Shown here piece after piece: positions 1-24,000 of a stretch of DNA of 24,000 nt. Source of the DNA: Ilumatobacteraceae bacterium (GTDB taxonomy: Bacteria > Actinomycetota > Acidimicrobiia > Acidimicrobiales > Ilumatobacteraceae); the NCBI GenBank assembly GCA_031366885.1, contig JANLPB010000098.1, positions 1 through 24,000 on the forward strand, in the 5' to 3' direction. The notes beneath the pieces were generated by a model. It ran no database searches. It was not told where the DNA came from and saw only the letters and a list, made by a program, of their open reading frames with translations. A program made the translations under genes and the position numbers. Position 1 is the stretch's first letter; the number at the start of each line of letters is the position of its first letter.

Positions 1-95
1 CAGCGCCGCCGTGGTCGACGCTGTCGTCCCCATCGTCGAGCGCCTTGCCGGCACCTGAAGTCCCTTCAACCTACGAGACCCGAAAGCAGCCACCT

Positions 96-2449: not shown

Positions 2450-3270
2450 TGGCGGGGACCAAGCTCCTCGGGAAGATTGCGGTTGTCACCGGGTCCAGCC
2501 GCGGCATCGGGCGAGGGACGGCCATCGCTCTCGGAGAGGAAGGGGCCACCGTCTACATCACAGGTCGCAGTACCGGCGACGGTGAACTCACCATCGAGCG
2601 GACCGCTGAACTGGTGGCGCAGGCCGGTGGTCGCGGTATTCCGGTGCCCACCGACCACGGCGACGACGCCCAGATCGAAGCCCTCTTCGATCGCGTGCGA
2701 GCCGACGAGGGCAAGCTCGACATCCTGGTCAACAACGTCTACAAGATTCCCAGCCCGCCCGCGTGGGGTGGCGGCTTCTGGGACCACCCGGTCTCTATTT
2801 GGGACGATCAGGTCGGCATCGGGCTTCGCGCGCACTACATCGCTTCGTGGCATGCGGCGCCGTTGCTGTTCGCCGCCGGGCCGGGCAGCTTCATCTGCAA
2901 CGTCTCGTCGCCGGGTGGCCAGAGCTACCACTTCAGTTCGTCGTACGGGGCAGGCAAGGCCGGCCTCGATCGGCTGGGCGCCGACATGGCGCTGGAGCTG
3001 GCGCCGAAGGGAATTGCCTGCGTCACCGTCTACCCCGGCACGGTCTCGACAGAGTTCATCGTCGAGGCGCGCGGCACCAGCTCGGCAGCGATGGACACCG
3101 CCCAGACACCATTGGTGGTCGGGCGCAGCATCGCAGTCCTCGCTTCCGCAGCCGACCTGATGGAACGGTCCGGGTCGATTCAGTGGGTGGAAGATTTGGG
3201 TCGCGAGTTCGGGCTCGTCGACGAGTTCGGGCGCGCGCCGGCTGCCTACCCGAAACGGTTGCCTCAGTAA
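2449..3270 (+). CDS. SDR-family short-chain dehydrogenase/reductase
   Basis: 273 aa. Rossmann motif 'VVTGSSRGIGRG', 'NNV' segment, and catalytic 'YGAGKAGLD' (YxxxK). The start overlaps the P450 stop by 1 nt. Confidence 0.88.
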   Translation: MAGTKLLGKIAVVTGSSRGIGRGTAIALGEEGATVYITGRSTGDGELTIERTAELVAQAGGRGIPVPTDHGDDAQIEALFDRVRADEGKLDILVNNVYKIPSPPAWGGGFWDHPVSIWDDQVGIGLRAHYIASWHAAPLLFAAGPGSFICNVSSPGGQSYHFSSSYGAGKAGLDRLGADMALELAPKGIACVTVYPGTVSTEFIVEARGTSSAAMDTAQTPLVVGRSIAVLASAADLMERSGSIQWVEDLGREFGLVDEFGRAPAAYPKRLPQ

Positions 3271-5609
3271 CTGCCTTCTTCGTGGCGGTCGACACCGAGC
3301 AGCTGCACCAGGTCTTCGTGTAGTTCCATCCACACGTCGTGGTAGCTGCCGCACATGACGCCCGTGAACATTCGCTGCTCGCCGCTTTCGAGCCGCACCA
3401 GGCTGGTGCTCAGTCGCCGGTCGTACGAAGCGAAGCGCGGGATCGCCTCGGCGAAGCCGGCGATCGGCGCCAAGGCCTGATCGTGCATTGCGCGCAGTTC
3501 GGCGACGCGGGCGCTGTCGTAGTCCGGGTCACTGTGGTCGTTGGGGTCGCCGTCGCGAATTTGCCACCGGTTGCATAGATCTTTGAACCCGACGTTGAGG
3601 TCGAGGAACTGCGGGTACGGCTCGCGCAGCCCGTCGACGGCGACACCGGAAACCTCCTGCAGCTTCTCGCCGTGGCGGTCGCGACCGAGGGGGGAGAGCT
3701 GCCACAGGTTGCGTGCGGCGACGTGGCGACACCATCCGGTCTCCACCATTCCCGACAGCATGTTCTCGACGATGGTTTGCTCCACGCCGGAGATCTCGGC
3801 GATCACTTCCACGGGCGCGTAGCCCTTGATGCGCAGCGCATGCATGACCAGGAATTCGGCGTCGCCATCGTCGCTGCGGATTGCGATGGCGGCGTCGGCT
3901 GACTCCAGCAGATCTTCGACGGCAGTTTGCTGCTCGATGGTTGGTGCGGCGCCGGCGGCAATGGCCGCCATCACGTCGTTGTTGACGCGGCTCATCTCGA
4001 GCAGCGCCTGGGCGACGGCGAGTCGTGCGATGGGCACCCGATACGGCGAGCAGCTGACGTAGTCGACCCCGCAGGCAACGAGGAACTTGGCCGATTCAGG
4101 GTCGCCGGCTTGTTCGCCGCAGACGCCGATCTTGATGGCGGCGTTGGCGTCGCGAGCATGCTCGCACGCATAGCGGATGAGGCGGCCAACACCGATCTGG
4201 TCGAGCGATTCGAACGGATCGCTCTGCAGCAGCCCGTGGCGCAGGTATTCGGGAATCAGTTTGCTGCCGACGTCGTCGCGGCTGAACGCGAACGTCAGCT
4301 GCGTGAGGTCGTTGGTGCCGAACGAGAAGAAGTCGCTCACCTCCGCCAGCTCACCGGCAACGAGCGCGGCTCGCGGTGTCTCCAACATCGCGCCCACGCT
4401 GACGGCACCTTCAAAGCCGACGGACGCAATGGCCTCGGCCACCCATGCCCGAGCCATGTGCATCTCGGTGGGGTCGATGACCAGTGGAATCATCACTTCC
4501 ACCTTTGGCGAGCGGCCCTGGGCCTGCACCGCGATGACCGCGTGCAGCAGCGCACGCACCTGCATTTGGTAGAGCCCTGGCTTGACCACACCCAGCCGCA
4601 CACCGCGGGTGCCGATCATCGGGTTCACCTCGTGCAACCGCCTGACGGCAGCCAACTCGAAACGGCCCTCGTCGTCCAGCTCGCCGAGTGCTTCTGCGAC
4701 AACCAGCCGTTCCAGCTCCGGCAGGAACTCGTGTAGTGGCGGGTCGAGCAGGCGAATCGTGATCGGCAGGCCATCCATCGCGGAGAGGATGCCCTCGAAG
4801 TCGGCCTGCTGCGCCGCCGCCAATTCAGTGAGCGCGTCGCGTTCCTCGCTCGGCACATCGCTGAGAATCAGCCGACGAACGAGCGGCAACCGGTCGTCGG
4901 CGAGGAACATGTGCTCGGTGCGACACAGCCCGATGCCCTCGGCACCCAGGTGGCGGGCGTGCGCTGCGTCGGCCGAGTTGTCGGCGTTGGCGCGCACCGC
5001 AACCGGTACGTCGGCTCCGGCGCGAATCTGGTCGGCCCAGTCGAGCAGGGTCTCCAATTCGGGCGGCGCTTCGGCGGTCGACGTGTCGGCGCGCCCGAGA
5101 AAGACCTCGCCCGTACGACCATCGATTGAAATCTGAGTGCCGGCCGTCAGCACCCTGTCGCCGATGCGGAGGCCCTCATCGTCGATGAGTATTTCGCCCG
5201 CCCCAACGACTGCCGGAATTCCCCAGCCACGAGCGACGACCGCAGCGTGACTGGTGATACCCCCGCGCGTCGTGAGAATGCCGCGTGCGGACTGCATGCC
5301 CAATACGTCGTCGGGCGTCGTCTCGTTGCGAACCAGGATCACCGGCCGCCCGGCGTCGGCAGCCTCGATGGCGTCCTCTGCGCTGAACGCAATCTCGCCC
5401 GCAGCTGCTCCTGGGGAGGCGCCCAACGCTGTTGTCAAGAGCGCCATCTCGTCGTTGCTGGCGAAGGTGGCGTGCAGGAACGCGCCAATGGCCCCAGCAG
5501 GTACCAGTGCGACCGCCTCGGCGATGGTGAGTGCGTCGTTGGGGTCACATGCGCGCCGGACCGCGCTCTGGATGATGGCGGCGAATGATTCGCCAGCGGT
5601 AGAACTCAT
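3264..5609 (-). CDS. pyruvate,phosphate dikinase-like PEP-utilising protein lacking the ATP-grasp domain, with a C-terminal extension of unknown function
   Basis: 781 aa.
- Swivel phosphohistidine motif 'TTRGGITSHAAVVARGWG' (His121).
- PEP/pyruvate TIM-barrel motifs 'GIGLCRTEHMF', 'IRLLDPPLHEF', 'FFSFGTNDLTQ' and 'VSCSPYRVPIARLA' (Cys520).
- The protein begins at the region that lies between the nucleotide-binding and His domains of full-length PPDK.
- The start is supported by SD 'AAGGGGA' 4 nt upstream of the ATG at 5609.
- Residues ~540-781 (nt ~3264-3992) extend beyond the PPDK fold. Confidence 0.85.
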   Translation of the reverse strand: MSSTAGESFAAIIQSAVRRACDPNDALTIAEAVALVPAGAIGAFLHATFASNDEMALLTTALGASPGAAAGEIAFSAEDAIEAADAGRPVILVRNETTPDDVLGMQSARGILTTRGGITSHAAVVARGWGIPAVVGAGEILIDDEGLRIGDRVLTAGTQISIDGRTGEVFLGRADTSTAEAPPELETLLDWADQIRAGADVPVAVRANADNSADAAHARHLGAEGIGLCRTEHMFLADDRLPLVRRLILSDVPSEERDALTELAAAQQADFEGILSAMDGLPITIRLLDPPLHEFLPELERLVVAEALGELDDEGRFELAAVRRLHEVNPMIGTRGVRLGVVKPGLYQMQVRALLHAVIAVQAQGRSPKVEVMIPLVIDPTEMHMARAWVAEAIASVGFEGAVSVGAMLETPRAALVAGELAEVSDFFSFGTNDLTQLTFAFSRDDVGSKLIPEYLRHGLLQSDPFESLDQIGVGRLIRYACEHARDANAAIKIGVCGEQAGDPESAKFLVACGVDYVSCSPYRVPIARLAVAQALLEMSRVNNDVMAAIAAGAAPTIEQQTAVEDLLESADAAIAIRSDDGDAEFLVMHALRIKGYAPVEVIAEISGVEQTIVENMLSGMVETGWCRHVAARNLWQLSPLGRDRHGEKLQEVSGVAVDGLREPYPQFLDLNVGFKDLCNRWQIRDGDPNDHSDPDYDSARVAELRAMHDQALAPIAGFAEAIPRFASYDRRLSTSLVRLESGEQRMFTGVMCGSYHDVWMELHEDLVQLLGVDRHEEGSY

Positions 5610-7878: not shown

Positions 7879-9393
7879 TCACAGTTCGCCGCGGTCGAGC
7901 CTGGCGAGGATGTCGACGGCGTGACTTCGGACGGCCCGCAAGTTGCTCAGCGCGCGCATGGCCGCCAGCGCGCGGGCCATACGGTGATTCGAGGCAAGTG
8001 CGTCGGCGTTGCGGGCGAGAAAGTCCCAGTACAGAGTCGTATAGGGGCAGGCCTTTGGGCCGACCCGTAGCTTCGGGTCGAAGCGGCATCCGCGGCACGA
8101 ATCGCTCATCTTGTTGATGTAGGCGCCGCCGGAGGCGTACGGCTTGGTGGCCATCATGCCCCCATCGGCGAACAGGGCCATCCCCACGACATTCGGCAAC
8201 ATCACCCAGTCGGCACCGTCGACGAAGCTCGCTCGCATCCACTCCGTCATCGCCGCTGGGTCGACACCTGCCGTCAACGCAAGGTTGCCGAGCACCATCA
8301 ATCGCTCGATGTGATGCGCATACCCGTGATCGTCGACGTGCCCGATCACGCTGGCAACGCAGGCCATCTCCGTGGTCGCCTGGCCGGTGAACGCAGGCGG
8401 AACCGGGCGCGTGGCGCCGAGCGCGTTGCTCGCTCGGTACTCGGGCATCCACAGCCAATAGACACCCCACACGTACTCGCGCCATCCGATCACCTGCCGG
8501 ATGAAACCCTCGACCGAGCTCAGTGGAGCATCGTCGCGACGATAGGCCGCCTCGGCTGCGTCGACGATCTCGGTCGGGTGCAACAGGCCCAAGTTCATCG
8601 ACGAGGCCAGCACCGAGTGAGCGAGCTTCCACTCGGAGGTGAGCATCGCGTCCTCGTGCGGGCCGAAGGCCGCGAGGCCGCGGTCGATGAACTCGGTGAG
8701 TCGCGTCATCGCCTGCGCTCGTGTGACCGGCCACGTCCCGTCAGGGTCAGCGCCGAAGGTCGCCGCGGGAAGCCGGTCGACGACGGAGCGGTCGATGTCG
8801 TCGAGGTCGAACAGCTCGATCTGCGGCCAGGCGCGGCCATCTCTGGGCGGCGGTTCGCGATTGTCGTGGTCGAAGTTCCACCTGCCCCCGACGGGCTCTG
8901 GGCCGGCGATGCCTTCCTCGACGAGGACGCCCAGACGTTGGCGCTGCCAGCGGTAGAAGTCCTCCATCGTCAGCCGCTTGCGCCCGGATGCCCAACCCGC
9001 GAAATCGTCGTAGTGGCACAGGAACAGGTCGTTGCGGACCAGTTCGACTCCCAACCGTTCGAGCATCACGCGCCCGTCCCAGCTGCTCGGTTCCATGGCG
9101 ATGATCCGACGGACACCACATTCGTCCACGTGCTCGCGGAGGCCTTGCTCAAGTGTGCGGGCGTGTCGGTAGTCGACCTCGAAACCTTCGGTGCGCAGTT
9201 CCGCCGCAAAGTGGAGCATCGCTGACAGCACTATGTGCAACCGCTGACGATGCCATCGCCGCGAGTTGGTGAGCCGTTCGCTCTCGACCAGCAGTACGCG
9301 ACACTCACCCGGCATCATGCTGGCCAGGGCTCCGCGGGCGCGGTCCAGTTGGTCGCCAAGAACCCAAACGGTGGGGATCGAGGCAGCGGCCAC
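7879..9393 (-). CDS. cryptochrome/photolyase-family protein, Fe-S bacterial type (FeS-BCP / PhrB-CryB-like, COG3046)
   Basis: Taken from ORF 7879..9486.
- The N-terminus 'TVWVLGDQL' and 'MEDFYRWQRQR' are typical of photolyase-related COG3046 proteins.
- Four cysteines are spaced as in the [4Fe-4S] site: 'EMACV' and 'MSDSCRGCRFDPKLRVGPKACPYTTLYWDF'.
- The start is uncertain. GTG at 9393 gives a family-typical short N-terminus. GTG at 9486 would overlap the upstream SDR by 56 nt. Confidence 0.85.
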   Translation of the reverse strand: MAAASIPTVWVLGDQLDRARGALASMMPGECRVLLVESERLTNSRRWHRQRLHIVLSAMLHFAAELRTEGFEVDYRHARTLEQGLREHVDECGVRRIIAMEPSSWDGRVMLERLGVELVRNDLFLCHYDDFAGWASGRKRLTMEDFYRWQRQRLGVLVEEGIAGPEPVGGRWNFDHDNREPPPRDGRAWPQIELFDLDDIDRSVVDRLPAATFGADPDGTWPVTRAQAMTRLTEFIDRGLAAFGPHEDAMLTSEWKLAHSVLASSMNLGLLHPTEIVDAAEAAYRRDDAPLSSVEGFIRQVIGWREYVWGVYWLWMPEYRASNALGATRPVPPAFTGQATTEMACVASVIGHVDDHGYAHHIERLMVLGNLALTAGVDPAAMTEWMRASFVDGADWVMLPNVVGMALFADGGMMATKPYASGGAYINKMSDSCRGCRFDPKLRVGPKACPYTTLYWDFLARNADALASNHRMARALAAMRALSNLRAVRSHAVDILARLDRGEL

Positions 9394-9430
9394 TACGCCA
9401 GTGTGCCGTTCGCAGCGTGGTACGGCCGCA

Positions 9431-10138
9431 TCACGACGTGAACGCCATGCTTGGCAGGTCGGCGGTGCCGGCCTCCAGTGCGTCACAGATCACCGTTGCA
9501 ACGTGCTCGGGCGAGATGCCCGCTGGCATGCGCGGTGCGACACCAGCCACCGGGTGATCGGCCAGCCCGGTCTCGGTGTGTGGCGGGCGGGCATCGAGCA
9601 CCCGAACATTGCGCCGCCGGGCTTCGCGAGCGAGAGCCTGGTCGAACGATCGGACCGCTGCCTTCGAGGCACCGTATGCGGCCATGCCGGGGAGGTTCGT
9701 TTCGGCGATCACCCCCGAGATGTTGACGATCGCCCCGTTGGGTCGCAGCACCGGAAGCGAGGCGCGAGCGAGCATGATCGGCAGGAACGTGTTGGTCAGG
9801 AACAGCTCTTCCATCGTGTCGACCGACAGCTCGTCGACGGTTCCGAACGCCACCACACCAACCGCGTTGACCACGACGTCGAGGTGGCCGCAGTGATCGA
9901 CCGCCGCCGCCACCGCGGCGGCGCACGCCTCCGGGGAACGCAGATCGAGCGCGGCGCGCGCGCCGGCAAGTTCCAGCGCACGCAGCCGTTCAGCATCACG
10001 CGACACCAGTGTGAGAGCGGCGCCGCGGCGGGTCATCTCGGCGCCGATCGCGCGGCCCAGTCCGCCGGTCGCTCCCGCGAGAAGCACCGACGCGCCGGCA
10101 AGGGGGAATGAACTTGGTTTGTCCTGCGTTGGTGCCAT
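9431..10138 (-). CDS. SDR-family oxidoreductase
   Basis: 235 aa. Motifs 'VLLAGATGGLGRAIG' (TGxxxGxG), 'NAVG' and 'YGASKAAV' (YxxxK). It lies directly upstream of the photolyase-like gene on the same strand. Confidence 0.85.
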   Translation of the reverse strand: MAPTQDKPSSFPLAGASVLLAGATGGLGRAIGAEMTRRGAALTLVSRDAERLRALELAGARAALDLRSPEACAAAVAAAVDHCGHLDVVVNAVGVVAFGTVDELSVDTMEELFLTNTFLPIMLARASLPVLRPNGAIVNISGVIAETNLPGMAAYGASKAAVRSFDQALAREARRRNVRVLDARPPHTETGLADHPVAGVAPRMPAGISPEHVATVICDALEAGTADLPSMAFTS

Positions 10139-10163
10139 TAGTGCTAAAACTACCGGGTCTTCG

Positions 10164-11690
10164 ATGAACGTTTCACAACCAGCGCCGGTACTCGGCGTTC
10201 AGCCCGGAAGTCTTGTTCTGGTCACGGGTGGCAGCGGCTACGTGGGTGGCCGGTTGGTGACGGTGTTGCTCGAGCGCGGGTATCGCGTGCGGTGTCTGGT
10301 GCGCACGCCCGCGAAGGTGCGCTCGGCTCCGTGGCACAGCTCCGTCGAGATCGTGCAGGGTGATGTCGGTGGCGATCTCGGCGAAGCCCTGCAAGGGGTC
10401 GATGCCGCGTTCTATCTGGTGCACTCCATCGGCTCGTCCGCCGATTGGGCCGAGCACGACCGAGCAGTTGCGGAGAACTTTCGGCGCTCTGCAGAGTTGG
10501 CGGGTGTGCAGCGGATCATCTACCTCGGTGGGCTCGGTGACCACTCCTCGGGTCACCTCAGCGAACACCTCGCGAGCCGTCAAGAGGTGGGCGCCGAACT
10601 TGCCAAGGGTTCGGTGCCCGTGGTCGAGTTGCGTGCTGCGGTTGTCATCGGGTCAGGTTCGGCAAGCTTCGAGATGCTGCGCTACCTCGTCGAAGTACTT
10701 CCCGCCATGGTCACGCCGCGTTGGGTGGATACTCGTTGCCAACCGGTCGCTGTCCGCGACGTGTTGCACTTCCTCGTCGAGTCGCTGACCGCAGACGTCA
10801 CCCATCGCGTCCTCGATGTGGGCGGCCCCGAGGTGTTGACGTATCGCGAGATGATGGCTCAGTACGCGCAGGTCGCCGGTCTACGGCGCAGGCTTGTCGT
10901 GCCGGTGCCGTTCCTGACGCCAGGGTTGTCGTCGCGTTGGATCGGTCTCGTGACGCCGATCCCGCCGCTACTCGCACGCCCTCTCATTCAAAGCCTCGTG
11001 AACGACGTCGTTGTCACGGGCGACGCGGCCGCTGACGCGATGCCCATCGAGCAGCTCAGCTATCGCGAGGCGGTGGAGCTGGCATTGGGTAATGCGATCA
11101 GCGGCGACGTGGCGACCAGTTGGGCACACGCCGCGCTCGGCGGACGCCCGCCGGCTGAGCCGCAGCCCACCGACCCGGCGTGGTCCGGTGGCACGGTCAA
11201 CCTTGACCGGCGCGAGCGGCATGCCGCAGCGTCCCCCGCAGAGCTGTTCCAAGTGGTCTGCTCGATCGGCGGTCGACAGGGCTGGTATGCGGGCGACTGG
11301 CTATGGACGCTGCGCGGGCTTCTTGACTCATTGATTGGCGGTGTCGGTATGCGACGCGGACGACTCCACCCGCATCAGTTGTCGACCGGTGATCCGCTCG
11401 ACTTCTGGAGGGTCGAGGCGTTGGCTCCGAACAGCCTGCTACGGCTGCGCGCCGAGATGCGACTTCCCGGGGACGCGTGGTTGCAGTGGCAGATCGAGCC
11501 CGGCGCCAACGGTGCCACCATCACGCAGACCGCGCGATTCCATCCGCGCGGCCTACTCGGCCGCCTCTACTGGATCGCGGTCGCGCCCTTCCACCGGTTC
11601 ATCTTCCCCGGCCTGCTTGCCGGCATCTGCGCTGACGCAGAACGGCTGCACTCGTTCGTCAATGCGCAGCGTGGCGAAGGGATTCGGTGA
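10164..11690 (+). CDS. NmrA-like/atypical-SDR NAD(P)-binding domain fused to a DUF2867 domain
   Basis: Taken from ORF 10011..11690. I prefer the ATG at 10164 ('MNVSQPAPVLGVQPGSLVLVTGGSGYVGGRLV'); the upstream part of the ORF is antisense to the SDR. The C-terminal ~150 aa ('FWRVEALAPNSLLRLRAEMRLPGDAWLQWQIEP...ARFHPRGLLGRLYW') resemble DUF2867 as I remember it. Confidence 0.8.
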   Translation: MNVSQPAPVLGVQPGSLVLVTGGSGYVGGRLVTVLLERGYRVRCLVRTPAKVRSAPWHSSVEIVQGDVGGDLGEALQGVDAAFYLVHSIGSSADWAEHDRAVAENFRRSAELAGVQRIIYLGGLGDHSSGHLSEHLASRQEVGAELAKGSVPVVELRAAVVIGSGSASFEMLRYLVEVLPAMVTPRWVDTRCQPVAVRDVLHFLVESLTADVTHRVLDVGGPEVLTYREMMAQYAQVAGLRRRLVVPVPFLTPGLSSRWIGLVTPIPPLLARPLIQSLVNDVVVTGDAAADAMPIEQLSYREAVELALGNAISGDVATSWAHAALGGRPPAEPQPTDPAWSGGTVNLDRRERHAAASPAELFQVVCSIGGRQGWYAGDWLWTLRGLLDSLIGGVGMRRGRLHPHQLSTGDPLDFWRVEALAPNSLLRLRAEMRLPGDAWLQWQIEPGANGATITQTARFHPRGLLGRLYWIAVAPFHRFIFPGLLAGICADAERLHSFVNAQRGEGIR

Positions 11691-11833
11691 GGGTGTCACT
11701 GCACGCTGGGTGGGCCTGATGAATCCTGAAGAGTGGCTGCCACATGATCAGTCAATCAGACCCGACGAGTGTCGAGCTCGGCCATGCTCGCATCGCCGAC
11801 CCGATTTATGCTCACCTGACCCAGCCCGCGACC

Positions 11834-11839
11834 AGGAGA
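11834..11839 (+). promoter_or_regulatory. Shine-Dalgarno sequence (AGGAGA) of the heliorhodopsin gene
   Basis: AGGAGA lies 7 nt upstream of the ATG at 11847. Confidence 0.6.
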
Positions 11840-11846
11840 GCCACCA

Positions 11847-12656
11847 ATGACCGACACTGCGGCGCCGCAACCGAACTCAGTGAGCAGTGTCTCGACCCTG
11901 GCCTCGGGCGTCACGCCCGAGCGTCTCGCTGGCCTTCGGAAGTGGAACCTCGGCCTCAGCGTGGTGCATGCAGCGCAGGCAGTGCTCATCCTCGTGATGT
12001 CGAGTTCCTTCGCCATCACTGTCACGTCCACCTTTCCTCAAGGACCCCCCGGCACTCGTTTGACGACGCCTGAGGGACTGCTCGACGTCGCCATCGGCCC
12101 AGCAATTGCAGTCTTTCTGCTGCTGGCTGCATTCGACCATTTCGCCACCGCGACATTCGCTCGTATCACCTATGAGCACGACCTGCGGCGGGGCATCAAC
12201 CGGTTCCGGTGGGTGGAGTACTCGCTCAGCGCCACCCTGATGATTCTGCTGATCGGGTTCTACAGCGGCATCACCGACATCACCGGAATCATCGTCATCG
12301 CCGGGGCGAACGTCGCCATGATCCTGTTCGGCTGGTTGCAGGAGCGAATGAACCCGCCCGGGCGCACCACGACGACGATGATGCCGTTCTGGTTCGGCAC
12401 CGTCGCCGGTATTGCCCCCTGGGTGGCCATCTGGGTCAACGTGATCGGTGCTCCCAAGGTGCCGGGTTTCGTGTACGGCATCGTGATCGCCGAGCTGATC
12501 TTCTTCTTCAGCTTCGGCCTCAACCAGTGGCTGCAGTACCGGGGAGTTGGCCGCTGGCGCGACTACGCCTACGGCGAGAAGACGTACTTGGTGCTCAGTC
12601 TGGTGGCGAAGTCCGTGCTCGCCTGGCAGATCTACGGCGGGTCACTGGCCACCTGA
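11847..12656 (+). CDS. heliorhodopsin (retinal-binding 7-TM photoreceptor protein)
   Basis: 269 aa with seven hydrophobic segments. Family-specific motifs are collinear with heliorhodopsin 48C12 as I recall it:
- 'VVHAAQ' (His41)
- 'AAFDHF' (His98)
- 'FRWVEYSLS' (Glu124, counterion position)
- 'ILFGWLQE', 'PFWFG' and 'VPGFVYGI'
- 'LVLSLVAKSVLAWQIYGGSL' (Lys255, codon AAG at 12609-12611, Schiff-base lysine position). Confidence 0.9.
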   Translation: MTDTAAPQPNSVSSVSTLASGVTPERLAGLRKWNLGLSVVHAAQAVLILVMSSSFAITVTSTFPQGPPGTRLTTPEGLLDVAIGPAIAVFLLLAAFDHFATATFARITYEHDLRRGINRFRWVEYSLSATLMILLIGFYSGITDITGIIVIAGANVAMILFGWLQERMNPPGRTTTTMMPFWFGTVAGIAPWVAIWVNVIGAPKVPGFVYGIVIAELIFFFSFGLNQWLQYRGVGRWRDYAYGEKTYLVLSLVAKSVLAWQIYGGSLAT

Positions 12657-12700: not shown

Positions 12701-12841
12701 TCAGACGGGATTGGTGTGGCTGGCTGCGTCTTCGGATCGATCGGCCCAGCGGCCGAAGCTCAGCATCGCGTACAGAAATCCGCCGGTGAACACGACGATG
12801 GTCACGAGCGCACCGGCGATGAAGACGCCTGTCTCGGTCAC
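12701..12841 (-). CDS. small single-TM membrane protein (46 aa), hypothetical
   Basis: Absent from the supplied ORF track because it is under 60 aa. Reverse-strand translation from GTG (12841) gives 'VTETGVFIAGALVTIVVFTGGFLYAMLSFGRWADRSEDAASHTNPV*', with the stop at 12701-12703. Its GTG overlaps the stop of the upstream small ORF (GTGA, 12838-12841), which suggests translational coupling. Confidence 0.35.
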   Translation of the reverse strand: MTETGVFIAGALVTIVVFTGGFLYAMLSFGRWADRSEDAASHTNPV

Positions 12842-13032
12842 TTCGACGGCCGCCGGTGAGCGAGCACGAACGAACCGAGAGCCAAAATCGACGGCACCCA
12901 GATGCCGACGAAGATGCCATTGAGGCGGCCGTTCACCTCGTCGCCTGCCTGGAAGTAGATGATGACGCTCAGCAGGAAGCTGGCAAAGGCGGCAGCGAGA
13001 AACGTGCCCTTGAGGATTCGTTCAGGGTTCAT
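12838..13032 (-). CDS. small two-TM membrane protein (64 aa), hypothetical
   Basis: Taken from ORF 12838..13071. I prefer the ATG at 13032, giving 'MNPERILKGTFLAAAFASFLLSVIIYFQAGDEVNGRLNGIFVGIWVPSILALGSFVLAHRRPSK'. There are two clear hydrophobic helices. I recognise no family. Confidence 0.5.
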   Translation of the reverse strand: MNPERILKGTFLAAAFASFLLSVIIYFQAGDEVNGRLNGIFVGIWVPSILALGSFVLAHRRPSK

Positions 13033-13109
13033 GCTGACGATGGTCCCATCGTTCGCACACAAAGACCTCACCCTGGTCGAGGTCTTCGTGAGCGATCGAA
13101 GCCGCCCGT

Positions 13110-13152
13110 GATTGCACCCGGGAGGACCTGATGGTCCACCCGGGATGCAATC
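13110..13152 (-). terminator. long stem-loop immediately downstream of the 1208-aa gene (putative intrinsic terminator without a U-tract)
   Basis: GATTGCA-CCCGGG-A-GGACC (13110-13128), loop TGAT, then GGTCC-A-CCCGGG-A-TGCAATC (13133-13152). That gives 18 bp of pairing with one A/A mismatch and one bulged A. It starts 5 nt beyond the stop at 13157. Confidence 0.4.
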
Positions 13153-13156
13153 CGCC

Positions 13157-16100
13157 CTACTTCTTGCCGGTGCCGCCCTTCATCACGAGCGTTGCCGCGT
13201 TGGTGTTGTTTGCCACTACCGGGTCTGGCGTCGACGTCGTGGCCGTGGCTGTGTTCAGGATTGTTCCAACGCTGCCGTTGGCCTGGGCCTCGATCACGAA
13301 TGTGACGGTTGCGCCGGCCGGCAGATTCAAGGCAGTGCATCGGACTTGATGGGTTGCTTTGGTGTAGGTGCACTGCGGCGACACGTACTGCACGACGATC
13401 TTCTTCGGGTCGAGGGGCAGCTTGTCGATGACGACGATGTCCCTGGCGTCGGACGGGCCACCGTTGCCGCAGTTTGGTGAGACGGTGGACTGAGCATCGG
13501 TTTCGCAGCCGGCATCATTGTGGACGATCAACGTGTAGACGATGACCGGGCTCGGATTACCGGAGCGCTGGCTGGCCGTCTTGTCGAGCCAGATGTCGCT
13601 GCTCGTGTCGACGTTGGTTGAGCTGGTCGCCGAGTTGTTGCTCGTGTCCGGGTCGGGTGTCGTCGAGCTCACGGTCACGGTGTTCTGCAGCACCGTGGTG
13701 TCGGGCAGCGACGCGGTGACCTTCACGGTGATGAACACCGTCACCGACGCAAACGGCTGCAAGGTTCCGAGGTTGCAGACCACGGTCGCCGCCTGGTTCA
13801 GCGTGCACACCGTGTTGCCGTTGCCGTCCTTTCCGCTGACAAACGTGGTGCCTGCGGTCAGCGGATCGCTGATCGCCACGTTCTGAGCGGTCGAGGGGCC
13901 GGCGTTGGTCACGGTGATCGTGTACGTCAGCTGGTTCCCGGCAATCACCGGTTCGGGTGCAGCGGTCTTCGTGACGCCCAGGTTGGCCGATGCAGACACG
14001 ACGGTGTTGACGCTCATGCGGTTGTTCGCATTCGACGGGTCGGCCGTGTCGCTCGTTACCTGAGCTTCGTTGAACAGTGACGTTCCCGACGCCACACTTG
14101 GGTCGACGAGCGCGACAACCGTGATCGTCGCACCAGCGCCCGACGCGAGATTGCCGAGCCCGCAGCGCAGGCCGCGGTTGCCGGGTTGACCGTTGATACA
14201 CGTCCCGGCGGTCGTGGTCGCCGACACGAAGGTGAGGCCGAGCGGCAAGGTGTCGGTCACGACCGTCCCAACCGCCGTTGACGGGCCTCCATTAGCCACC
14301 GTGATCGTGTACGTCATCTGCGTACCGGCCACCACCGTGGCGGGACCAGTCTTGGTGAGCGACAGGTCGGCCGAGCCGAGGAACGTGACGCGACCGGTCG
14401 CTTGGTTGTTGGCCGTGATCGGATCCGGCGTCAGGCTCGACACCGTCGCAACGTCGTTGATCTGGGCAACGTCGGCTGCGGTGACGTCGACGTGTACTGT
14501 CGTGCGGCCAGCAGCCGGCTCGGTGCCAAGATCGCAGGTGATCGACACCGTGGTCGCAGGCCCGGCTGCCAATGGTGCACACGTGCCGCCGGCGACCGTG
14601 ACGCCAGTGACGCTGAACGGTGACGCCGACGTCAGTACGTCGGTGAGTGTCACGCTGCGGGCGTCTGAGGGGCCGAGGTTGTCGACGTGGATGTCGCAGA
14701 ATCCAGTGGTGCCCGCGGCGGCCGGAAGGTCCGGCTTGCAGATCTTCGTCACCATCAAGTCGGCGCGATCCTGCACGATCGTGCCGAGCGTGAAGGTGTT
14801 GTTGTTGGTGTTGGTGTCGTTGTCGCCAGCGACCGTCACCGTGTTGTACATCGTGATCGCGGCCGCGCTGCCAAGGATGCTGGGGCTCACATGCACCTGG
14901 ATCGTGAATGTCGTCGACGCAGATGCGGCCAGGTTTCCGACGTTGCACGTCAGCGTGCCCACCGGACCCTGCACACATGGAATGGTCGACGTGACGAACG
15001 TGACTCCCGCCGGCAGCACGTCAGTGACGGTCGCGTTGAAGACGGTGCCGGGACCATTGTTGGTTGCGGTGATGTCGTAGTACAGCTCGCCACCGGCGAT
15101 GGCCGGGTCCGGCCGCGATGTCTTGCTGATGCGCAGATCGCCACCGTTGACGATCGGTGCCTCGAGTCGGTCGTAGTAGACGTCGAGATCGAGGCGTCCC
15201 GTCGGGGCTGGGTAGGCCGTCGTGTTGATCGAACGCCGGCCGTCACCCCACAGGTAATGGAAGCTGGCTGCATCGCCCGCGGCCGCGAGGTACTCGCCGA
15301 AGTAGCACTGCGCCGTTCCCGGGTTGTAATGCGGGAACAGTGGCGGGACGCCCGCCGTCACGTCGCTGACACGAATGTTCGCGCCGTAGGTCACGCCACC
15401 ATCGGTGGAGAATGCGGTGTACACGTCGGTATTGGTGTTGCCCGGGTTGTCGTTGCGTTTGTCGTACCAGGCGACGGCGACAACCCCCGTTGGTGACACT
15501 GTGATGAACGGATTGAACTCGTCGAGGTTGTTCGCCGGCACGCCCATCTGTTGCGCGTTGACCCAGCTTGCCCCACCGTTGATCGATCGGGCCACGAGCA
15601 CATCTGAGCGGTCCGCAGCGTTTGCCGGGTTCTCCATCCACGCCGCGTAGAGGTTGCCGTTGTTCGCTCCGCCCGATGTATCCACAGCCAGCCACGCGCC
15701 GTGGAGCATGCGGATATTGCCGTTGAGAATCGGTCGGCTGTTGTTGTTGCCGCAGTTGTTCGCGGCAGTCACGTCGCCGGCCTGAGCTGCTGCCGCGTCG
15801 ATGTCAACGATTCCGCCGAAGGTGAGGCCACCGTCGACGGAGCGGATGAACTCGATCTGCCCTGCAGCGCGGTTGGCGTACGCGATGTTGATGTCACCGG
15901 TTGGCCCGACCTGGATGCTGCACCCGAACGGGCTCGATCCGGTGGGCACGATGACCTGCTCGCCGATGAATGTCGCGCCATTGTCGTTCGACCGGCTGAA
16001 CCGCATCTCGCTGGTTCCGGTCGCGGTGTTGCCGGGCGTCGTCTGGAAGAACCGTGTCCAGCACACGTAGACGTCGCCGTCATTGGCGCCGCCGGTGTTG

Positions 16101-16783
16101 TCGACTGCAACCCAGGGCTTGTCGTTGAGGGTCGTCCCGGCCAGGCCCGACGCCACAGGAGAGGCGTTCGTGGCCGCGGCAAACGTCTGGCAACCATCCG
16201 TCGAACGGGCGATGCCGATCGATGGATTGGCTCCGGTCGTACCGATTTCGCCGTAGTAAAAGTCGCCGGTAGTGATATGCGCGGCGATGACCGGGTCGCC
16301 GCTCCCGCCAATGCCGTCGAGGTCGGTCCACGTCTGGCCGGTGTTGGCCGACACCGCGTGGCCGGAGAGCCCGCCTGCCGTGAAATCGTTGTATCCGGCG
16401 CACACGACGCTGCCGTTGACGGCGAGCGCTGCCTCACTTTGTGTGGTGTTGTCGGTGGCGAGGTTGTCGTCGGCTGGGTCGTTCACCATCACGTCCGCGC
16501 CGAACACAGGGTCACCCGCGGCATTCGGCTGCTCGGCGGTGCGCGCGGCGGGTGCGGTAGATGTTCCGTTCAACGCGGCCGGCGCGTCGACGAGGCCGGC
16601 CATCTGAAGCAGGAGATGTTCACCGGCAGCCGACGGAGCCTCGTTCGGTGGATACTGGCCAAGAATGTCGCCAACGGGATCTGACTTTGCTTCAGCGCTG
16701 GGCGGGCCGCCGATCATCAGAACTCCCAGTAGAAGCGGCAGCGTAAGGCTTCTCATCGTCCGTTCGAGCTTGGTTCGACGCAT
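13157..16783 (-). CDS. large secreted protein: signal peptide, six-Asp-box (BNR/sialidase-like) beta-propeller and five DUF11 repeat domains
   Basis: 1208 aa.
- SD 'AAGGGGA' lies upstream of the ATG at 16783.
- Signal peptide: '[32 protein letters not shown]'.
- Six Asp-boxes: SANTGQTW (aa 145), STDGCQTF (194), SNDNGATF (265), SVDGGLTF (315), SINGGASW (400), STDGGVTY (459).
- Five repeats of the DUF11 pattern follow, for example '[48 protein letters not shown]'. Confidence 0.9.
   Translation of the reverse strand: [1208 protein letters not shown]
13184..15142 (-). repeat. five tandem ~128-aa DUF11-type domain repeats (protein level) within the 1208-aa gene
   Basis: Approximate repeat boundaries are aa 548-674, 675-804, 805-933, 934-1062 and 1063-1200. 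Each repeat has 'L..(T/S)K' plus 'Y.I.V.N.GPS.A..V.V.D.LP.G..FV', a conserved Cys...Cys pair, and a terminal '(T)PDP..(A/S)NN' motif. The DNA copies have diverged, and I saw no exact nucleotide repeats. Confidence 0.7.
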
Positions 16784-16819
16784 CTCAGTTCCCCTTAGAA
16801 AGTCTGATCCCAGTGAGGT

Positions 16820-17467
16820 TCAGTTCGTGGTGCAATCCATGTTCTCGAGCAGGTCTGCGACCTCGGCTCGTCGTTGTTCCGCCATTTCGATCGTCGTGGT
16901 AACGACGATCGAGATCTCTGCCCGCACGTCACCCATCTGGGTGTAGGCGAGCTGTCGCTCAGGCGCTCCTGGCAGGCTCAGAACCATGCAGGTGCCGTAG
17001 TCAGCCGACTGCCAATCTTTCTGTTCGCGTTGCGTCAGCCATTGCTCGAGGCTGAGATCGTCGGTTCGATTGATGGTGCAAATCTGAACGGCTGCGCGTG
17101 CGAGCGCGGCCGAGCCAGCATCCGATGGAGACGGGTCATCGATGACCTCTGCAGCCATACAATTGTCGGCAGTGCCCTGAAATTCTGTGCCGATAACCGC
17201 AGTGTTCTCGGACGTCCAGCCGGCTGGAACGGAGAACCCAATACCGCCGATCGCGACAAGGGTGGTGACCGCGGCGACGGTTGTGGTTGAGGTTGACGAG
17301 GCGTCAGCGTGCAAGGTTGTGGAGGTGTCGCCCGCTGCGTCAGGCTCGGTGCCCGAGCCGCACTCCACCAGCACCGAGATCGCGGCGAGAGTCCCTGCCG
17401 CACGCATCAACAAGGCGCGTCGTGGCAGTGCGCAGACTACGTTTCGAGCCCCAACCCCACTTCCCAT
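16820..17467 (-). CDS. secreted or membrane-anchored protein of unknown function, Thr/Ser-rich linker
   Basis: Taken from ORF 16820..17518. The ATG at 17467 gives 'MGSGVGARNVVCALPRRALLMRAAGTLAAISVLVECGSG', with an RR-containing n-region, a hydrophobic core and a Cys. This is followed by 'TSTTLHADASSTSTTTVAAVTT' and a globular domain containing 'FSVPAGW'. The gene ends 36 nt upstream of the 1208-aa gene on the same strand, so the two are probably co-transcribed. The start is uncertain (17518, 17467 or 17407). Confidence 0.6.
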   Translation of the reverse strand: MGSGVGARNVVCALPRRALLMRAAGTLAAISVLVECGSGTEPDAAGDTSTTLHADASSTSTTTVAAVTTLVAIGGIGFSVPAGWTSENTAVIGTEFQGTADNCMAAEVIDDPSPSDAGSAALARAAVQICTINRTDDLSLEQWLTQREQKDWQSADYGTCMVLSLPGAPERQLAYTQMGDVRAEISIVVTTTIEMAEQRRAEVADLLENMDCTTN

Positions 17468-17706
17468 CCCACTAAAGTCCCAACTTCCCCCGCGTCGATC
17501 ATGAGCCGCGGGTGGCAAGGAAGCAAGAGGAAGTTCGCGCGGAACACTCAGTGACGGACTGTGCGGTCAGCGTGAGTTGTTAGGGTCAGTTGGCCCTATT
17601 GGCACCCCTCAACTCTGCGCACGATGCGTCCATGAGCCAGGACCGGCAAGGTCCAAGAATCATGGTCTCCGCAGTTGATACCGAGTCCGCGAATGCCGAC
17701 CAGCAG

Positions 17707-18033
17707 ATGATCGCGCGACAGCGTCCGCGGGTTTCACGGCGCGCGCTCACGTTCATCGGCGCGCTTGGCCTCGTTGGGCTGGCGATTGCCGGCTGCGCCT
17801 CGGACTCCAGCAACGCCCTCGGTGGAAAGGGGCCATACGGCGTCGCGCCGCCTGGTGGAAGTGCCGTCAACGGCTTGCTCGACGAGTGGCACGTGCGTGC
17901 CGACGCCAGCAACGTGCACGCCGGCCCGGTTACGTTCACCGTCTCGAACACGGGAACGATCATCCACGAAATGCTCGTGACCCGAACCGACATCGAGCCT
18001 GGCAAGATCCCGTCGCGAAAAGACCCCAGCTGA
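17707..18033 (+). CDS. short lipoprotein with an N-terminal cupredoxin-like segment, possibly a truncated gene
   Basis: Taken from ORF 17590..18033. The ATG at 17707 gives a textbook lipoprotein signal, 'MIARQRPRVSRRALTFIGALGLVGLAIAGCAS'. The mature part, 'EWHVRADASNVHAGPVTFTVSNTGTIIHEMLV', resembles the first strands of a cupredoxin-like domain. The ORF stops before the Cys/His/Met ligand region expected in full-length relatives. Alternative upstream starts are 17590, 17632 and 17662. Confidence 0.45.
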   Translation: MIARQRPRVSRRALTFIGALGLVGLAIAGCASDSSNALGGKGPYGVAPPGGSAVNGLLDEWHVRADASNVHAGPVTFTVSNTGTIIHEMLVTRTDIEPGKIPSRKDPS

Positions 18034-18042
18034 GCTGGGGTC
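18018..18042 (-). terminator. rho-independent terminator of tRNA-Leu
   Basis: The perfect 9-bp stem GACCCCAGC (18022-18030) pairs with GCTGGGGTC (18034-18042) across a 3-nt loop. On the minus strand it is followed by TTTT (18021-18018). It starts 7 nt beyond the tRNA 3' end. The loop is the TGA stop codon of the plus-strand ORF. Confidence 0.55.
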
Positions 18043-18048
18043 TTCAAG

Positions 18049-18131
18049 TGGGCGAGGGGGGACTTGAACCCCCACATCCTTTCGAATACTAGCACCTGAA
18101 GCTAGCGCGTCTGCCATTTCGCCACTCGCCC
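18049..18131 (-). tRNA. tRNA-Leu(CAG): tRNA-Leu (anticodon CAG)
   Basis: The reverse complement folds as a class II tRNA. Acceptor GGGCGAG/CTCGCCC, anticodon stem CTAGC/GCTAG with loop TTCAGGT, a long variable arm, and T-arm GGGGG-TTCAAGT-CCCCC. Discriminator is A and no CCA is encoded. Length 83 nt. Confidence 0.93.
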
Positions 18132-20234: not shown

Positions 20235-21062
20235 TTACGCGGGGAACATGAAGCAGCCGATGGTGCCCGGCCCGGTGTGCGCACCGATGCTCGGCCCGAT
20301 TCGGTAGCGGATGATTTCAGACACGCTGGCGGTCTCGCCGAGCGCCTCCTCTAGGCCATCCGCGAGTGGCACCGACCCTGCATCACTATGACCTATCGCG
20401 ACGCGCACACGCGTACCCCAACTCAGCGTGTACGCCGCCATCGCGTTGATGGCATCGAGCGTCGTGGCCGCGCGTTGGACGACAGTCACCTGAGCATCGC
20501 GAAACGACATCACCGGCACGCCAGCGCCAGAGAGGTCTACGTCGCGCCCGCGCCCGCCAACATGTAAATAGTTCAGCGCGCCGACCATGAACACGTTCCC
20601 GATCGAAGGTGACAATTGCTCAGCGATCATTGCAGCGTCATCGAGTGACGCACCTTGTTCGATCGCTGCCGCGGCGGCCCACACACAGCAGCTGACCCCG
20701 AAGCTGGCAGTACCCGAATCCACGAGGCGGACCGGCATGGGTACTGAGTGCGCAGCGAGGCGGGCGGCGTTGATGGTGCCCGACATTGCCGAGGTGACGT
20801 GAATGGAGAGGATTTCGGTGCAACCTCGCGCAGCGAGCTCTTCGTACGCGACGGCGAACTGACCAGGGCTCGGCTGGCTGGCGCTCACGTTCGGACAGCC
20901 ACCGCCACGGTAATTCGCGTAGAAATCGTCGGCGTCGATGTCGACACCCTCGAGGTAGTCGACGCCGTCGATGGTTACCGTCAACGGCACAACTTCGATG
21001 CCGTACCGACCAGCCAACGCAGCTGGCAGCTGCGAATTGGAGTCCGTGCAGATGCCAATCAT
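20235..21062 (-). CDS. DegV-family fatty-acid-binding protein
   Basis: 275 aa. 'MIGICTDSNSQLPAALAGRYGIEVVPLTVTIDGVDYLEG...DADDFY' is the typical DegV N-terminus, and the length is appropriate. Confidence 0.88.
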   Translation of the reverse strand: MIGICTDSNSQLPAALAGRYGIEVVPLTVTIDGVDYLEGVDIDADDFYANYRGGGCPNVSASQPSPGQFAVAYEELAARGCTEILSIHVTSAMSGTINAARLAAHSVPMPVRLVDSGTASFGVSCCVWAAAAAIEQGASLDDAAMIAEQLSPSIGNVFMVGALNYLHVGGRGRDVDLSGAGVPVMSFRDAQVTVVQRAATTLDAINAMAAYTLSWGTRVRVAIGHSDAGSVPLADGLEEALGETASVSEIIRYRIGPSIGAHTGPGTIGCFMFPA

Positions 21063-21691: not shown

Positions 21692-21764
21692 GCCCCCATC
21701 GTCTAGTGGCCTAGGACACCACCCTTTCAAGGTGGCGGCACGGGTTCGAATCCCGTTGGGGGTG
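21692..21764 (+). tRNA. tRNA-Glu(UUC): tRNA-Glu (anticodon TTC)
   Basis: Cloverleaf: acceptor GCCCCCA/TGGGGGT, anticodon stem CCACC/GGTGG with loop CTTTCAA, and T-arm ACGGG-TTCGAAT-CCCGT. Length 73 nt, no CCA encoded. Confidence 0.93.
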
Positions 21765-21817
21765 CTCAGCGTTTTAGGTAACAGTTTTTCAAGTACAGAC
21801 CAGCTGGTCAACAGCCT

Positions 21818-21890
21818 GGTCCCGTGGTGAAGTGGAGTTCACGCCGGCCTGTCAAGCCGGAGGTCGCGGGTTCGAACCCCGTCGGGACCG
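21818..21890 (+). tRNA. tRNA-Asp(GUC): tRNA-Asp (anticodon GTC)
   Basis: Cloverleaf: acceptor GGTCCCG/CGGGACC, anticodon stem CCGGC/GCCGG with loop CTGTCAA, and T-arm GCGGG-TTCGAAC-CCCGT. Length 73 nt. Confidence 0.93.
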
Positions 21891-21935
21891 CTCGGGCGCA
21901 AGCCCGTTCGGATGCTACGAAAGTGGCACACATAC

Positions 21936-22008
21936 GGTCGAGTAGCTCAGTCGGCAGAGCATACGCCTGAAAAGCGTAGGGTCACCGGATCGACGCCGGT
22001 CTCGACCA
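21936..22008 (+). tRNA. tRNA-Phe(GAA): tRNA-Phe (anticodon GAA)
   Basis: Cloverleaf: acceptor GGTCGAG/CTCGACC, D-arm GCTC-AGTCGGCA-GAGC, anticodon stem TACGC/GCGTA with loop CTGAAAA (GAA at 21969-21971), and T-arm ACCGG-ATCGACG-CCGGT. The T-loop is non-canonical. Length 73 nt. Confidence 0.85.
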
Positions 22009-22016
22009 CTGGCAAG

Positions 22017-23797: not shown

Positions 23798-24000
23798 GGG
23801 TTCCCCTCTCGTTCGCCAAACGTACACCGACTGCCGATGGCCCGAATTCCGACAGCCCGCCACTGCTCATTCGAACGATCGGGGCCGCCCGTGCTGGTCG
23901 GTGCGCAACGTTCCGCGAAGCAGGCACGGATCAGTGCGATGGTCCAGTTGCGGCATCTGAGGTTCACCGCACCCGACGAACTGCGCGATCGCTACGCGAA

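Follow-up and report, generated by a model that had tools for sequence, protein, structure and literature searches.

A 48C12-like heliorhodopsin gene from an Ilumatobacteraceae genome and its possible place in a light and oxidative-stress module

The gene considered here encodes a heliorhodopsin (HeR) and lies on contig JANLPB010000098.1 of an Ilumatobacteraceae assembly (GCA_031366885.1), in a stretch of 24,000 nucleotides that was analyzed at its full length and is called the window below. Its closest solved relative is 48C12, the HeR of a freshwater actinobacterium (PDB 6su3, 6uh3), for which structural work has assigned roles to Glu107, Ser237 and the pair His23/His80 (PMC7049168). Work on other HeRs has provided precedents for the regulation of a partner, namely a photolyase in the case of TfHeR (PMC9769723) and the OmrDE ABC transporter in the case of OcHeR (PMC11109279). 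Work with the viral V2HeR3 has shown that a glutamate of transmembrane helix 6 (TM6), E191, is a hallmark of ion-transporting HeRs; it is homologous to I199 of TaHeR and T178 of bacteriorhodopsin (bR), and the E191Q mutant loses all photocurrent. This glutamate is necessary and not sufficient, as W195 and E/Q205 are needed too (PMC9448325). Published neighborhood studies, moreover, tie HeRs to oxidative stress, photolyases and short-chain dehydrogenases (SDRs), and DegV has been reported as a further HeR-associated family (bioRxiv 10.1101/2021.02.16.431466, among the studies of neighborhoods).

Set beside these systems, the window ORF is confirmed, at the level of its sequence, as a heliorhodopsin; it belongs to the 48C12-like bacterial group, and its host is an Ilumatobacteraceae-like member of the Acidimicrobiia. 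The informative part of the locus is its upstream context, made up of a putative stress-type promoter, a recurrent YbjT-like neighbor and a UV-repair gene, together with a glutamate, E216, rather than the gene itself. The reading that we place first, and to which we give about even weight, is that the HeR would serve as a light sensor in a light/oxidative-stress module and would be expressed with the YbjT-like gene from that promoter. Coordinates of the features are collected in Table 1.

The coding evidence agrees with an earlier note on this DNA, made from the letters alone, which had given the reading frame, its ATG and its product of 269 residues exactly as found here, and had also pointed out the strong Shine-Dalgarno (SD) sequence. 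The SD region, CCCGCGAnCAGGAGAGC, is kept in relatives (alignment A1; also locus L006), and the GC3 of the ORF (0.83) is typical of a real gene in a window with a GC content of 64.8%. Pfam PF18761 (Heliorhodopsin), the model that the earlier note had proposed for a search, matches the protein with E = 3.1e-95 and 318.6 bits (cutoff 26.7) over its full length (model positions 1-242 of 242), and it is the sole Pfam family to do so, with no better family competing. The NCBIfam equivalog NF038020, “heliorhodopsin HeR”, scores 270.4 bits against a cutoff of 100; given this match, the remark that a naive annotation would call the gene simply a membrane protein is outdated and no longer valid for the NCBI pipeline. 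Some relatives already carry the name heliorhodopsin HeR, and many JGI copies are still entered as “hypothetical protein”.

The top solved relatives are all heliorhodopsins, namely 48C12 (6su3, E = 2.6e-65), TaHeR (6is6, 4.2e-48) and the eukaryotic Cv06 (9vfc, 5.8e-40). Residues 25-267 of the window HeR align with residues 7-253 of the 48C12 chain in 6su3 at 46% identity over 247 residues, which bears out the collinearity described in the earlier note; identity of this order over the full length to a solved HeR settles the fold. The hydropathy profile has segments fitting seven helices, collinear with the solved structure, and Lys/Arg residues number 13-14 on the N-terminal side versus 2 on the opposite side. 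This asymmetry predicts an inverted, N-in topology, and the protein is accordingly predicted to have seven TM helices and a cytoplasmic N-terminus. The host is a monoderm, as the closest loci come from metagenome-assembled genomes (MAGs) of Acidimicrobiia/Ilumatobacteraceae (Actinomycetota) according to their record titles.

The functional residues are equally well preserved. All the peptides quoted in the earlier note (VVHAAQ, AAFDHF, FRWVEYSLS, SLVAKSVLAWQ, ILFGWLQE, PFWFG and VPGFVYGI) occur in the translation, and alignment with 48C12 equates H41 with H23, H98 with H80, E124 with E107 and K255 with K241. K255 is invariant in 120 close relatives, in 79 HeRs from related loci and in 91 diverse representatives of the family, while H41, H98, E124, S251 and K255 are all invariant across 121 sequences. 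A single Glu counterion in TM3, a serine (S251, 48C12 S237) replacing Asp212 of bR, and the His pair H41/H98 are present, so that the whole Schiff-base set E124/S128/S251/K255 is intact together with the two histidines. Of the 33 residues listed as structurally important for 48C12 (PMC7049168), 28 are identical in the window HeR. The residues kept from 48C12 include K241, E107, S111, S237, H23, H80, N16, N101, R104, W105 and Y108, as well as E149, Q213, Q216, Y226, E230 and the Q26/S242/W246 cluster; the substitutions are S76A (A94 here), S201A (A215), L202E (E216), F203L (L217) and L227A (A241). Strong purifying conservation is shown by these alignments, and in all respects apart from pigment formation the sequence identifies the product as a retinal-binding protein. 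At the first of the substituted positions, A94 (codon 12126-12128) corresponds to Ser76 of 48C12, one of two serines that stabilize the counterion Glu107. Alanine occupies this position in all 199 Acidimicrobiia relatives examined, and the diverse representatives have Ser in 44 of 91 and Ala in 33 of 91.

Genes of this kind are abundant. A protein with 100% identity is already in NCBI, on a contig of 28,346 nt, and a 98%-identical HeR occurs in another MAG (L015). At least 6,796 clusters at 90% identity match the window HeR at E <= 1e-20, and 3,042 clusters at 50% identity match it at E <= 0.001, figures which indicate that the rarity implied by the earlier note was overestimated. Such an abundance of relatives, along with the named models, makes the window HeR an unremarkable example of a named family with many members, and current pipelines name such genes correctly. 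With few exceptions, the 80 best genome loci come from Acidimicrobiia/Ilumatobacteraceae MAGs. Three MAG bins with near-identical Acidimicrobiia-type HeR loci (L009, L030, L043) are labeled Acidobacteriota or Bifidobacterium, which are probably binning or labeling errors in the public records. Family-model scans of the window ORFs found no retinal or carotenoid synthesis families, in keeping with the absence of retinal-synthesis genes from the window that the earlier note had stated. The P450 gene at 1181-2449 was considered as a retinal-linked enzyme, but only generic P450 models were matched, below their cutoffs, and no link was drawn.

Promoters of the sigmaH/sigmaR type answer thiol-oxidative and heat stress in other actinobacteria. 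Their published consensus is GGAAT-N18-19-GTT for sigmaH of Corynebacterium glutamicum, with a comparable sigmaR network in Streptomyces coelicolor (PMC10012870), and GGAAYR-N17-18-GTT for SigH of Mycobacterium tuberculosis (PMC4803200). Ahead of the YbjT-like gene, the window carries GGAATG-N17-GTT, a motif resembling this class of extracytoplasmic function (ECF) promoter and the sole strict match to GGAAT-N18-GTT on either strand of the window. The form GGAATR-N17-GTT heads the HeR-containing unit in loci L001-L006, L008, L011 and L017 and in the metagenome locus L089; both boxes and their spacing are invariant among these loci, and the sequence of the spacer is variable. The motif is kept through a variety of layouts, in which it may be followed by YbjT and HeR, by a 180-aa membrane ORF and then YbjT and HeR, by HeR and then YbjT, by HeR alone or by an unrelated upstream gene. 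In L006 it is fused directly to the ribosome-binding region of the HeR gene. When the degenerate published consensus was searched in 1.63 Mb of loci, 47 occurrences were found, 12 of which head a HeR unit versus about 0.06 expected by chance, as computed for twenty 100-nt promoter regions. The motif is absent in L007, a decayed locus, and in L014 and L050. Taken together, this pattern of conservation is as would be expected for a real ECF promoter. No paper was found that connects heliorhodopsin genes with sigma-factor control.

Two further observations concern the same intergenic region. The 25 nt between the divergent SDR and YbjT starts (10139-10163, TAGTGCTAAAACTACCGGGTCTTCG) are conserved in L001, L005, L011 and L017. 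The minus strand has a TANNNT-like hexamer (TAGTTT) whose end is 9 nt ahead of the ATG of the SDR, an arrangement that would fit a leaderless SDR-photolyase transcript.

The gene that follows the motif encodes a two-domain protein, for which Pfam reports DUF2867 (8.9e-37), NAD_binding_10 (1.3e-15) and NmrA (2.4e-11), and for which the JGI family name is “YbjT (DUF2867 family)”. A structure model based on 38 homologues (pLDDT 79) has a Rossmann domain, a C-terminal beta-sheet and a long terminal helix, and its top Foldseek matches are NDUFA9 (9g83_P, 3e-18), SwaQ2, SimC7 and NmrA/HSCARG. The N-terminal domain is structurally nearest to NDUFA9, the NADPH-binding 39-kDa subunit of complex I, and is also near ketoreductases and the NmrA/HSCARG redox sensors. 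The C-terminal domain has a weak, sub-threshold similarity to Polyketide_cyc2 (SRPBCC); DUF2867 itself is essentially uncharacterized in the literature. The motif H135-x3-R139 (10566-10580) is invariant in the 38 homologues, at 59-89% identity, and judged from secondary structure it appears to take the place of the catalytic YxxxK of SDRs. These features suggest an atypical NAD(P)-binding protein, comparable to NmrA/HSCARG or NDUFA9 and perhaps of the sensor type.

The YbjT-like gene is adjacent to the HeR gene in 11 of 80 related genome loci, directly upstream in nine and directly downstream in L017 and L050. Translational coupling is suggested by five loci (L001, L002, L004, L005 and L011) whose YbjT-like and HeR ORFs share 4 nt (ATGA). 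A metagenome scan with the YbjT alignment yielded 80 loci at 47-88% identity, including two further close copies. It also yielded a head-to-head pair 48 nt apart in L099, whose YbjT and HeR proteins are 56% and 43% identical to those of the window (PF18761 E = 1.6e-96); this is an independent YbjT-HeR association in a distant lineage. One more HeR-DUF2867 instance, from an Anaerolineales genome, is given in a supplementary table of PMC11109279, the only place where that paper mentions DUF2867. The pair can also be broken up. In L003 (5391-6001) YbjT is reduced to its first codons and a tail, and in L006 (5920-6003) there is no YbjT sequence; both loci keep the promoter motif, a conserved leader (ATTAGTGCyAAA...) and the HeR gene despite the deletion.

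Several observations bear on the wider history of the YbjT family and its unit. In some relatives the sigmaH-type motif and YbjT are separated by an additional membrane-protein ORF of some 180 aa (MVGLIWFVQVVHYPLF...LVRTNWVRTVGWS...), which no Pfam family matches; in L003 this ORF precedes HeR instead. It is found in L001 (~3970-4415), L003 (5355-5900) and L008 (~4020-4470), is truncated in L005 and L007, is absent from the window, and appears to be a third component of the YbjT-HeR unit that has often been lost. Distant YbjT/DUF2867 homologues are often the last gene of operons with the order Amino_oxidase, DUF1365, CMAS, (Polyketide_cyc2) and SDR, as in L083 (624-6518) and L084 (168-6491) and also in L115, L116, L118, L145, L150 and L162, and in L123 a homologue stands next to a PhrB-type photolyase. 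Work with Rhodobacter sphaeroides has shown that UfaD and UfaO (DUF1365), encoded in the singlet-oxygen-induced RSP1091-1087 operon, make furan fatty acids, that these lipids are higher in cells lacking chrR, and that the reductant for UfaO was reported as unknown (PMC7380195). The domain set of the YbjT clusters resembles this operon, and by this context alone the YbjT family would be linked with lipid chemistry and photo-oxidative stress.

Within the window, the YbjT-like and HeR genes are set apart by a spacer, and about 110 nt of this region (roughly 11684-11790) have no counterpart in relatives, whose ORFs overlap by 4 nt. Rfam gives no match to the spacer, and its folding z-score is 0.10; neither a terminator nor a sigma-70-like promoter is predicted in it, and its sequence recurs neither in the 80 loci nor elsewhere in the window. 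With nothing found that would mark it as an RNA element, a terminator, a promoter or a repeat, it was treated as a plain divergent spacer. Since no promoter or terminator was recognized, co-transcription with the YbjT-like gene is the simplest reading.

On the other side of the putative promoter stand the two genes that lend the locus its look of a light response. The divergent SDR is conserved beside the photolyase gene in L001, L003, L005, L008, L011 and L017. The photolyase has as solved relatives PhrB (4dja, 4.9e-119), CryB (3zxs, 2.7e-111) and an FeS-BCP (6-4) photolyase (7ykn, 2.4e-88). Because the YbjT-HeR unit lies back to back with the SDR and the (6-4) photolyase, the locus looks like a module that responds to light and oxidative damage.

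The most distinctive residue of the HeR, going by the alignments, is E216, which is rare in the family; it had escaped the earlier note, as had the upstream context. Its position was equated with L202 of 48C12 by ungapped alignment, and L202 corresponds to I199 of TaHeR (bioRxiv 10.1101/2025.11.27.691015) and hence to E191 of V2HeR3. Glutamate is found here in 117 of 120 close relatives; the 79 Acidimicrobiia locus HeRs have Glu in 36 and Gln in 42 (78 of 79 together), and 91 diverse representatives have Glu in 4, Gln in 9 and L/Y/I/M in 70. The position of the gate partner W195 is F220 in the window HeR, and Phe occurs there in 75 of the 91 family representatives. Q230 and E244 occupy the positions of V2HeR3 E/Q205 and E215 (the proton-accepting group), but they do not discriminate, as both are also present in the non-transporting 48C12. 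E216 is therefore regarded here as a protonatable group near the retinal that is specific to the clade. Placed just on the extracellular side of the chromophore, and lacking in 48C12 and TaHeR, it would probably tune the photocycle, and a role in proton transfer is possible.

In the light-sensor reading, the HeR gene would be transcribed with the upstream YbjT-like gene from the sigmaH/sigmaR-type promoter, and green light would isomerize the retinal as it does in characterized HeRs. The basic loops on the cytoplasmic side (R232-x3-R236-x-R238-D239, in the third of them) would then be altered by a long-lived photo-intermediate. Through these loops a partner in the cytoplasm or at the membrane periphery could be bound and modulated, and for this role the YbjT-like protein comes first among the local candidates and the photolyase second. 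Such a mechanism fits published proposals that place HeRs in light-induced oxidative stress and membrane protection, made concrete for one locus. A number of points weigh against it. The promoter is predicted from a motif, which is confined to the close clade and missing upstream of distant YbjT genes, and the 156-nt spacer that replaces the ancestral overlap could hold an unrecognized internal promoter. YbjT is dispensable in cis, as seen from its loss in L003 and L006 with HeR and promoter left in place, and a HeR neighbor is lacking for about 77 of 80 diverse YbjT genes. As many as 102 Pfam families occur among 110 genes flanking the HeRs of the lineage, most of which have other neighbors, although these frequencies are approximate, the GC3-based gene calls being inadequate for some 18 lower-GC loci and the tblastn adjacency counts more reliable. 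Finally, the partner of TfHeR is a class 2 CPD photolyase encoded in the same operon, whereas the window photolyase is of the FeS-BCP/PhrB type, on the minus strand and two genes away; as both photolyase class and gene arrangement differ, a partnership of the TfHeR kind was set aside and the photolyase kept only as the second-choice partner. The same loss of YbjT without loss of the promoter, the heterogeneous HeR neighbors and the many YbjT genes that stand apart from any HeR favor the main rival, in which the neighbors are only co-regulated. The HeR would here be a stand-alone sensor whose partner is encoded elsewhere, its adjacency to YbjT and photolyase reflecting shared stress or light regulation or inheritance within one clade. 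The finding of Chazan et al. that oxidative-stress and photolyase neighbors are common to proton-pump rhodopsins is consistent with co-regulation only (bioRxiv 10.1101/2021.02.16.431466). This rival is credible but on the unlikely side, as the YbjT-HeR adjacency survives a reversal of gene order (L017, L050), recurs independently in L099 and the Anaerolineales genome, and is accompanied in five loci by the overlap that suggests translational coupling.

The remaining explanations carry less weight than the light-sensor reading or its main rival. It is rather doubtful, though conceivable, that the window HeR belongs to a sub-lineage functionally distinct from the sensors 48C12 and TaHeR, one that would combine sigmaH/sigmaR-type oxidative induction, a transporter-type carboxylate and a YbjT-like partner and would act either through light-dependent proton conduction or by making that NAD(P)-binding/lipid-binding partner dependent on light. 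If true, this would tie HeR function directly to membrane defense against photo-oxidative damage. A light-driven or light-gated proton transporter like V2HeR3, with Glu216 as the gate or donor carboxylate of the extracellular half, is possible but unlikely. The alignment of E216 with a hallmark residue whose Gln mutant is currentless, the matches at Q230 and E244, and the retention in 117 of 120 close relatives of a glutamate seen in only 4 of 91 family representatives all speak for transport. Yet the gate partner of E191 is replaced by Phe, as in non-transporting HeRs; EhHeR and McHeR have the glutamate and do not transport (PMC9448325); and among the wider Acidimicrobiia HeRs Gln occurs as often as Glu, while E191Q of V2HeR3 is inactive. 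The low rating follows from F220, from the few other polar residues deep in the membrane on the extracellular side, and from ten freshwater bacterial and archaeal HeRs that show no proton pumping (bioRxiv 10.1101/2021.02.16.431466). Still less likely is the proposal, after the hypothesis of Chazan et al., that the HeR performs or triggers light-dependent repair or remodeling of membrane lipids with the DUF2867 domain and possibly DegV. It draws on the weak SRPBCC/START-like similarity of DUF2867, on YbjT homologues in clusters resembling furan-fatty-acid operons, on a nearby gene for DegV, a published HeR associate, and on structures that show lipid in the lateral fenestration of HeRs (bioRxiv 10.1101/2025.11.27.691015; PMC7049168). 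No HeR is known to act as an enzyme, the SRPBCC assignment comes from sub-threshold matches, and HxxxR in place of YxxxK, if the equivalence is correct, would argue against ordinary dehydrogenase chemistry. The DegV gene, moreover, is on the opposite strand with several other genes between, which makes that link weak here. That the HeR gene is a decaying or unexpressed relic, as the replacement of the ancestral overlap by a spacer might hint, is highly improbable in view of the intact frame, the strong SD, the GC3 of 0.83, the conservation of all functional residues and the 98%-identical copy in L015.

Table 1. Positions of the features discussed, counted from the first letter of the window
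Feature	Coordinates	Strand	Remarks
Heliorhodopsin (HeR) gene	11847-12656	+	269 aa, ATG start, stop codon counted in coordinates
Shine-Dalgarno AGGAGA	11834-11839	+	7 nt ahead of HeR ATG; read from sequence
Spacer between YbjT-like and HeR genes	11691-11846	+	156 nt; alignment A1, gene calls
E124 codon GAG	12216-12218	+	Schiff-base counterion in TM3 (48C12 E107); 48C12 alignment
E216 codon GAG	12492-12494	+	TM6; position of 48C12 L202, TaHeR I199, bR T178, V2HeR3 E191
K255 codon AAG	12609-12611	+	Retinal Schiff-base lysine in TM7 (48C12 K241); 48C12 alignment
SigmaH/sigmaR-type ECF promoter-like motif GGAATG-N17-GTT	10105-10130	+	Ends 34 nt before ATG at 10164
YbjT-like gene	10164-11690	+	Atypical NAD(P)-binding Rossmann domain (NmrA/NDUFA9-like) and C-terminal DUF2867 (SRPBCC-like); Pfam, structure model
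Classical short-chain dehydrogenase (SDR)	9431-10138	-	Pfam adh_short 3.8e-35; divergent, ATG 25 nt from YbjT-like ATG
FeS-BCP-type (6-4) photolyase/CryB homologue	7879-9486	-	Pfam DPRP 2.4e-51; true start probably downstream of 9486
DegV-family gene	20235-21062	-	Pfam DegV 2e-55
tRNA-Leu(CAG)	18048-18131		Within the 5.3-kb segment
Tandem tRNA cluster Glu(TTC)-Asp(GTC)-Phe(GAA)	21692-22009	+	
PEP-utilizing enzyme gene	3264-5609	-	Mobile and PEP-binding domains
PEP-utilizing gene	22145-23863	-	C-terminal mobile domain only, after ~490 residues without family match

Downstream of the HeR gene, a segment of about 5.3 kb (12838-18131) separates it from a 3-hydroxyacyl-CoA dehydrogenase (3HCDH) gene. 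The segment holds a 77-aa hydrophobic ORF, a 1208-aa secreted protein with BNR/DUF11 repeats, and ORFs of 232 aa and 169 aa without a family, in addition to the tRNA-Leu gene. L004 and L011 lack most of it: HeR lies there almost directly before 3HCDH, HD_3, DUF2017 and DegV, and the tRNA likewise follows HeR almost directly, at least in L011; in these two loci, which are without the 12.8-18 kb segment, the DegV gene is about 2.4-3.4 kb from HeR. The segment is shared only by L015; no integrase was seen in it, and its GC content is not clearly deviant. At the other end of the window, three co-directional overlapping or abutting genes (45-3270) encode a luciferase-like (F420-type) oxidoreductase, a cytochrome P450 and an SDR, and have the look of a small cluster for oxidative tailoring. 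Among the neighbor classes known from the HeR literature, glutamine synthetase/NAD synthetase, ABC transporter, MerR, DUF2177 and DUF2238 were looked for and none is adjacent to the window HeR; a B12-binding MerR neighbor of HeR was found in only 2 related loci.

As one of thousands, recognizable by standard models, the window HeR does not by itself alter what can be said of the physiological role of most HeRs. The locus does make three general published ideas specific, namely the link to oxidative stress, the regulation of a partner and possible ion transport, and it offers a handle on each in the form of a defined promoter motif, a YbjT/DUF2867 candidate partner and the residue E216 together with F220. 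As far as the searched literature shows, earlier work has described neither the conserved promoter of the sigmaH/sigmaR type, nor the recurrent coupling to YbjT/DUF2867, nor the E191-type glutamate.

In its comparison with known systems, the window HeR stands nearest to 48C12, with which it shares a length class; its N-terminus is 18 residues longer, its E-F loop 5 residues shorter and its D-E loop 2 residues longer. With V2HeR3 it shares the Glu at the E191 position, the counterion Glu, a Gln at the E/Q205 position and a Glu at E215, whereas F220 stands where that protein has W195, and V2HeR3 comes from a distant viral/algal lineage. The likeness to TfHeR and its class 2 CPD photolyase (PMC9769723) lies in a HeR gene near a photolyase-family gene in both cases and in cytoplasmic loops that are charge-rich here too, loops of this kind serving partner binding in TfHeR. 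The spacing pattern of OcHeR R229/R233/R235/D236 is reproduced by R232/R236/R238/D239, as a match of pattern and not an alignment; unlike OcHeR with OmrDE, and unlike the ten HeR neighbor groups described with it (PMC11109279), the window HeR has as its neighbor a YbjT-type atypical SDR fused to DUF2867, with no ABC transporter adjacent. For the promoter, the consensus derives from Corynebacterium, Mycobacterium and Streptomyces, while the window organism is a member of the Acidimicrobiia and its window is without sigH-rshA genes. GGAATG-N17-GTT is an exact match to both published consensuses of the sigmaH (Corynebacterium, Mycobacterium) and sigmaR (Streptomyces) type, and its distance to the start codon is within the range tabulated for C. 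glutamicum.

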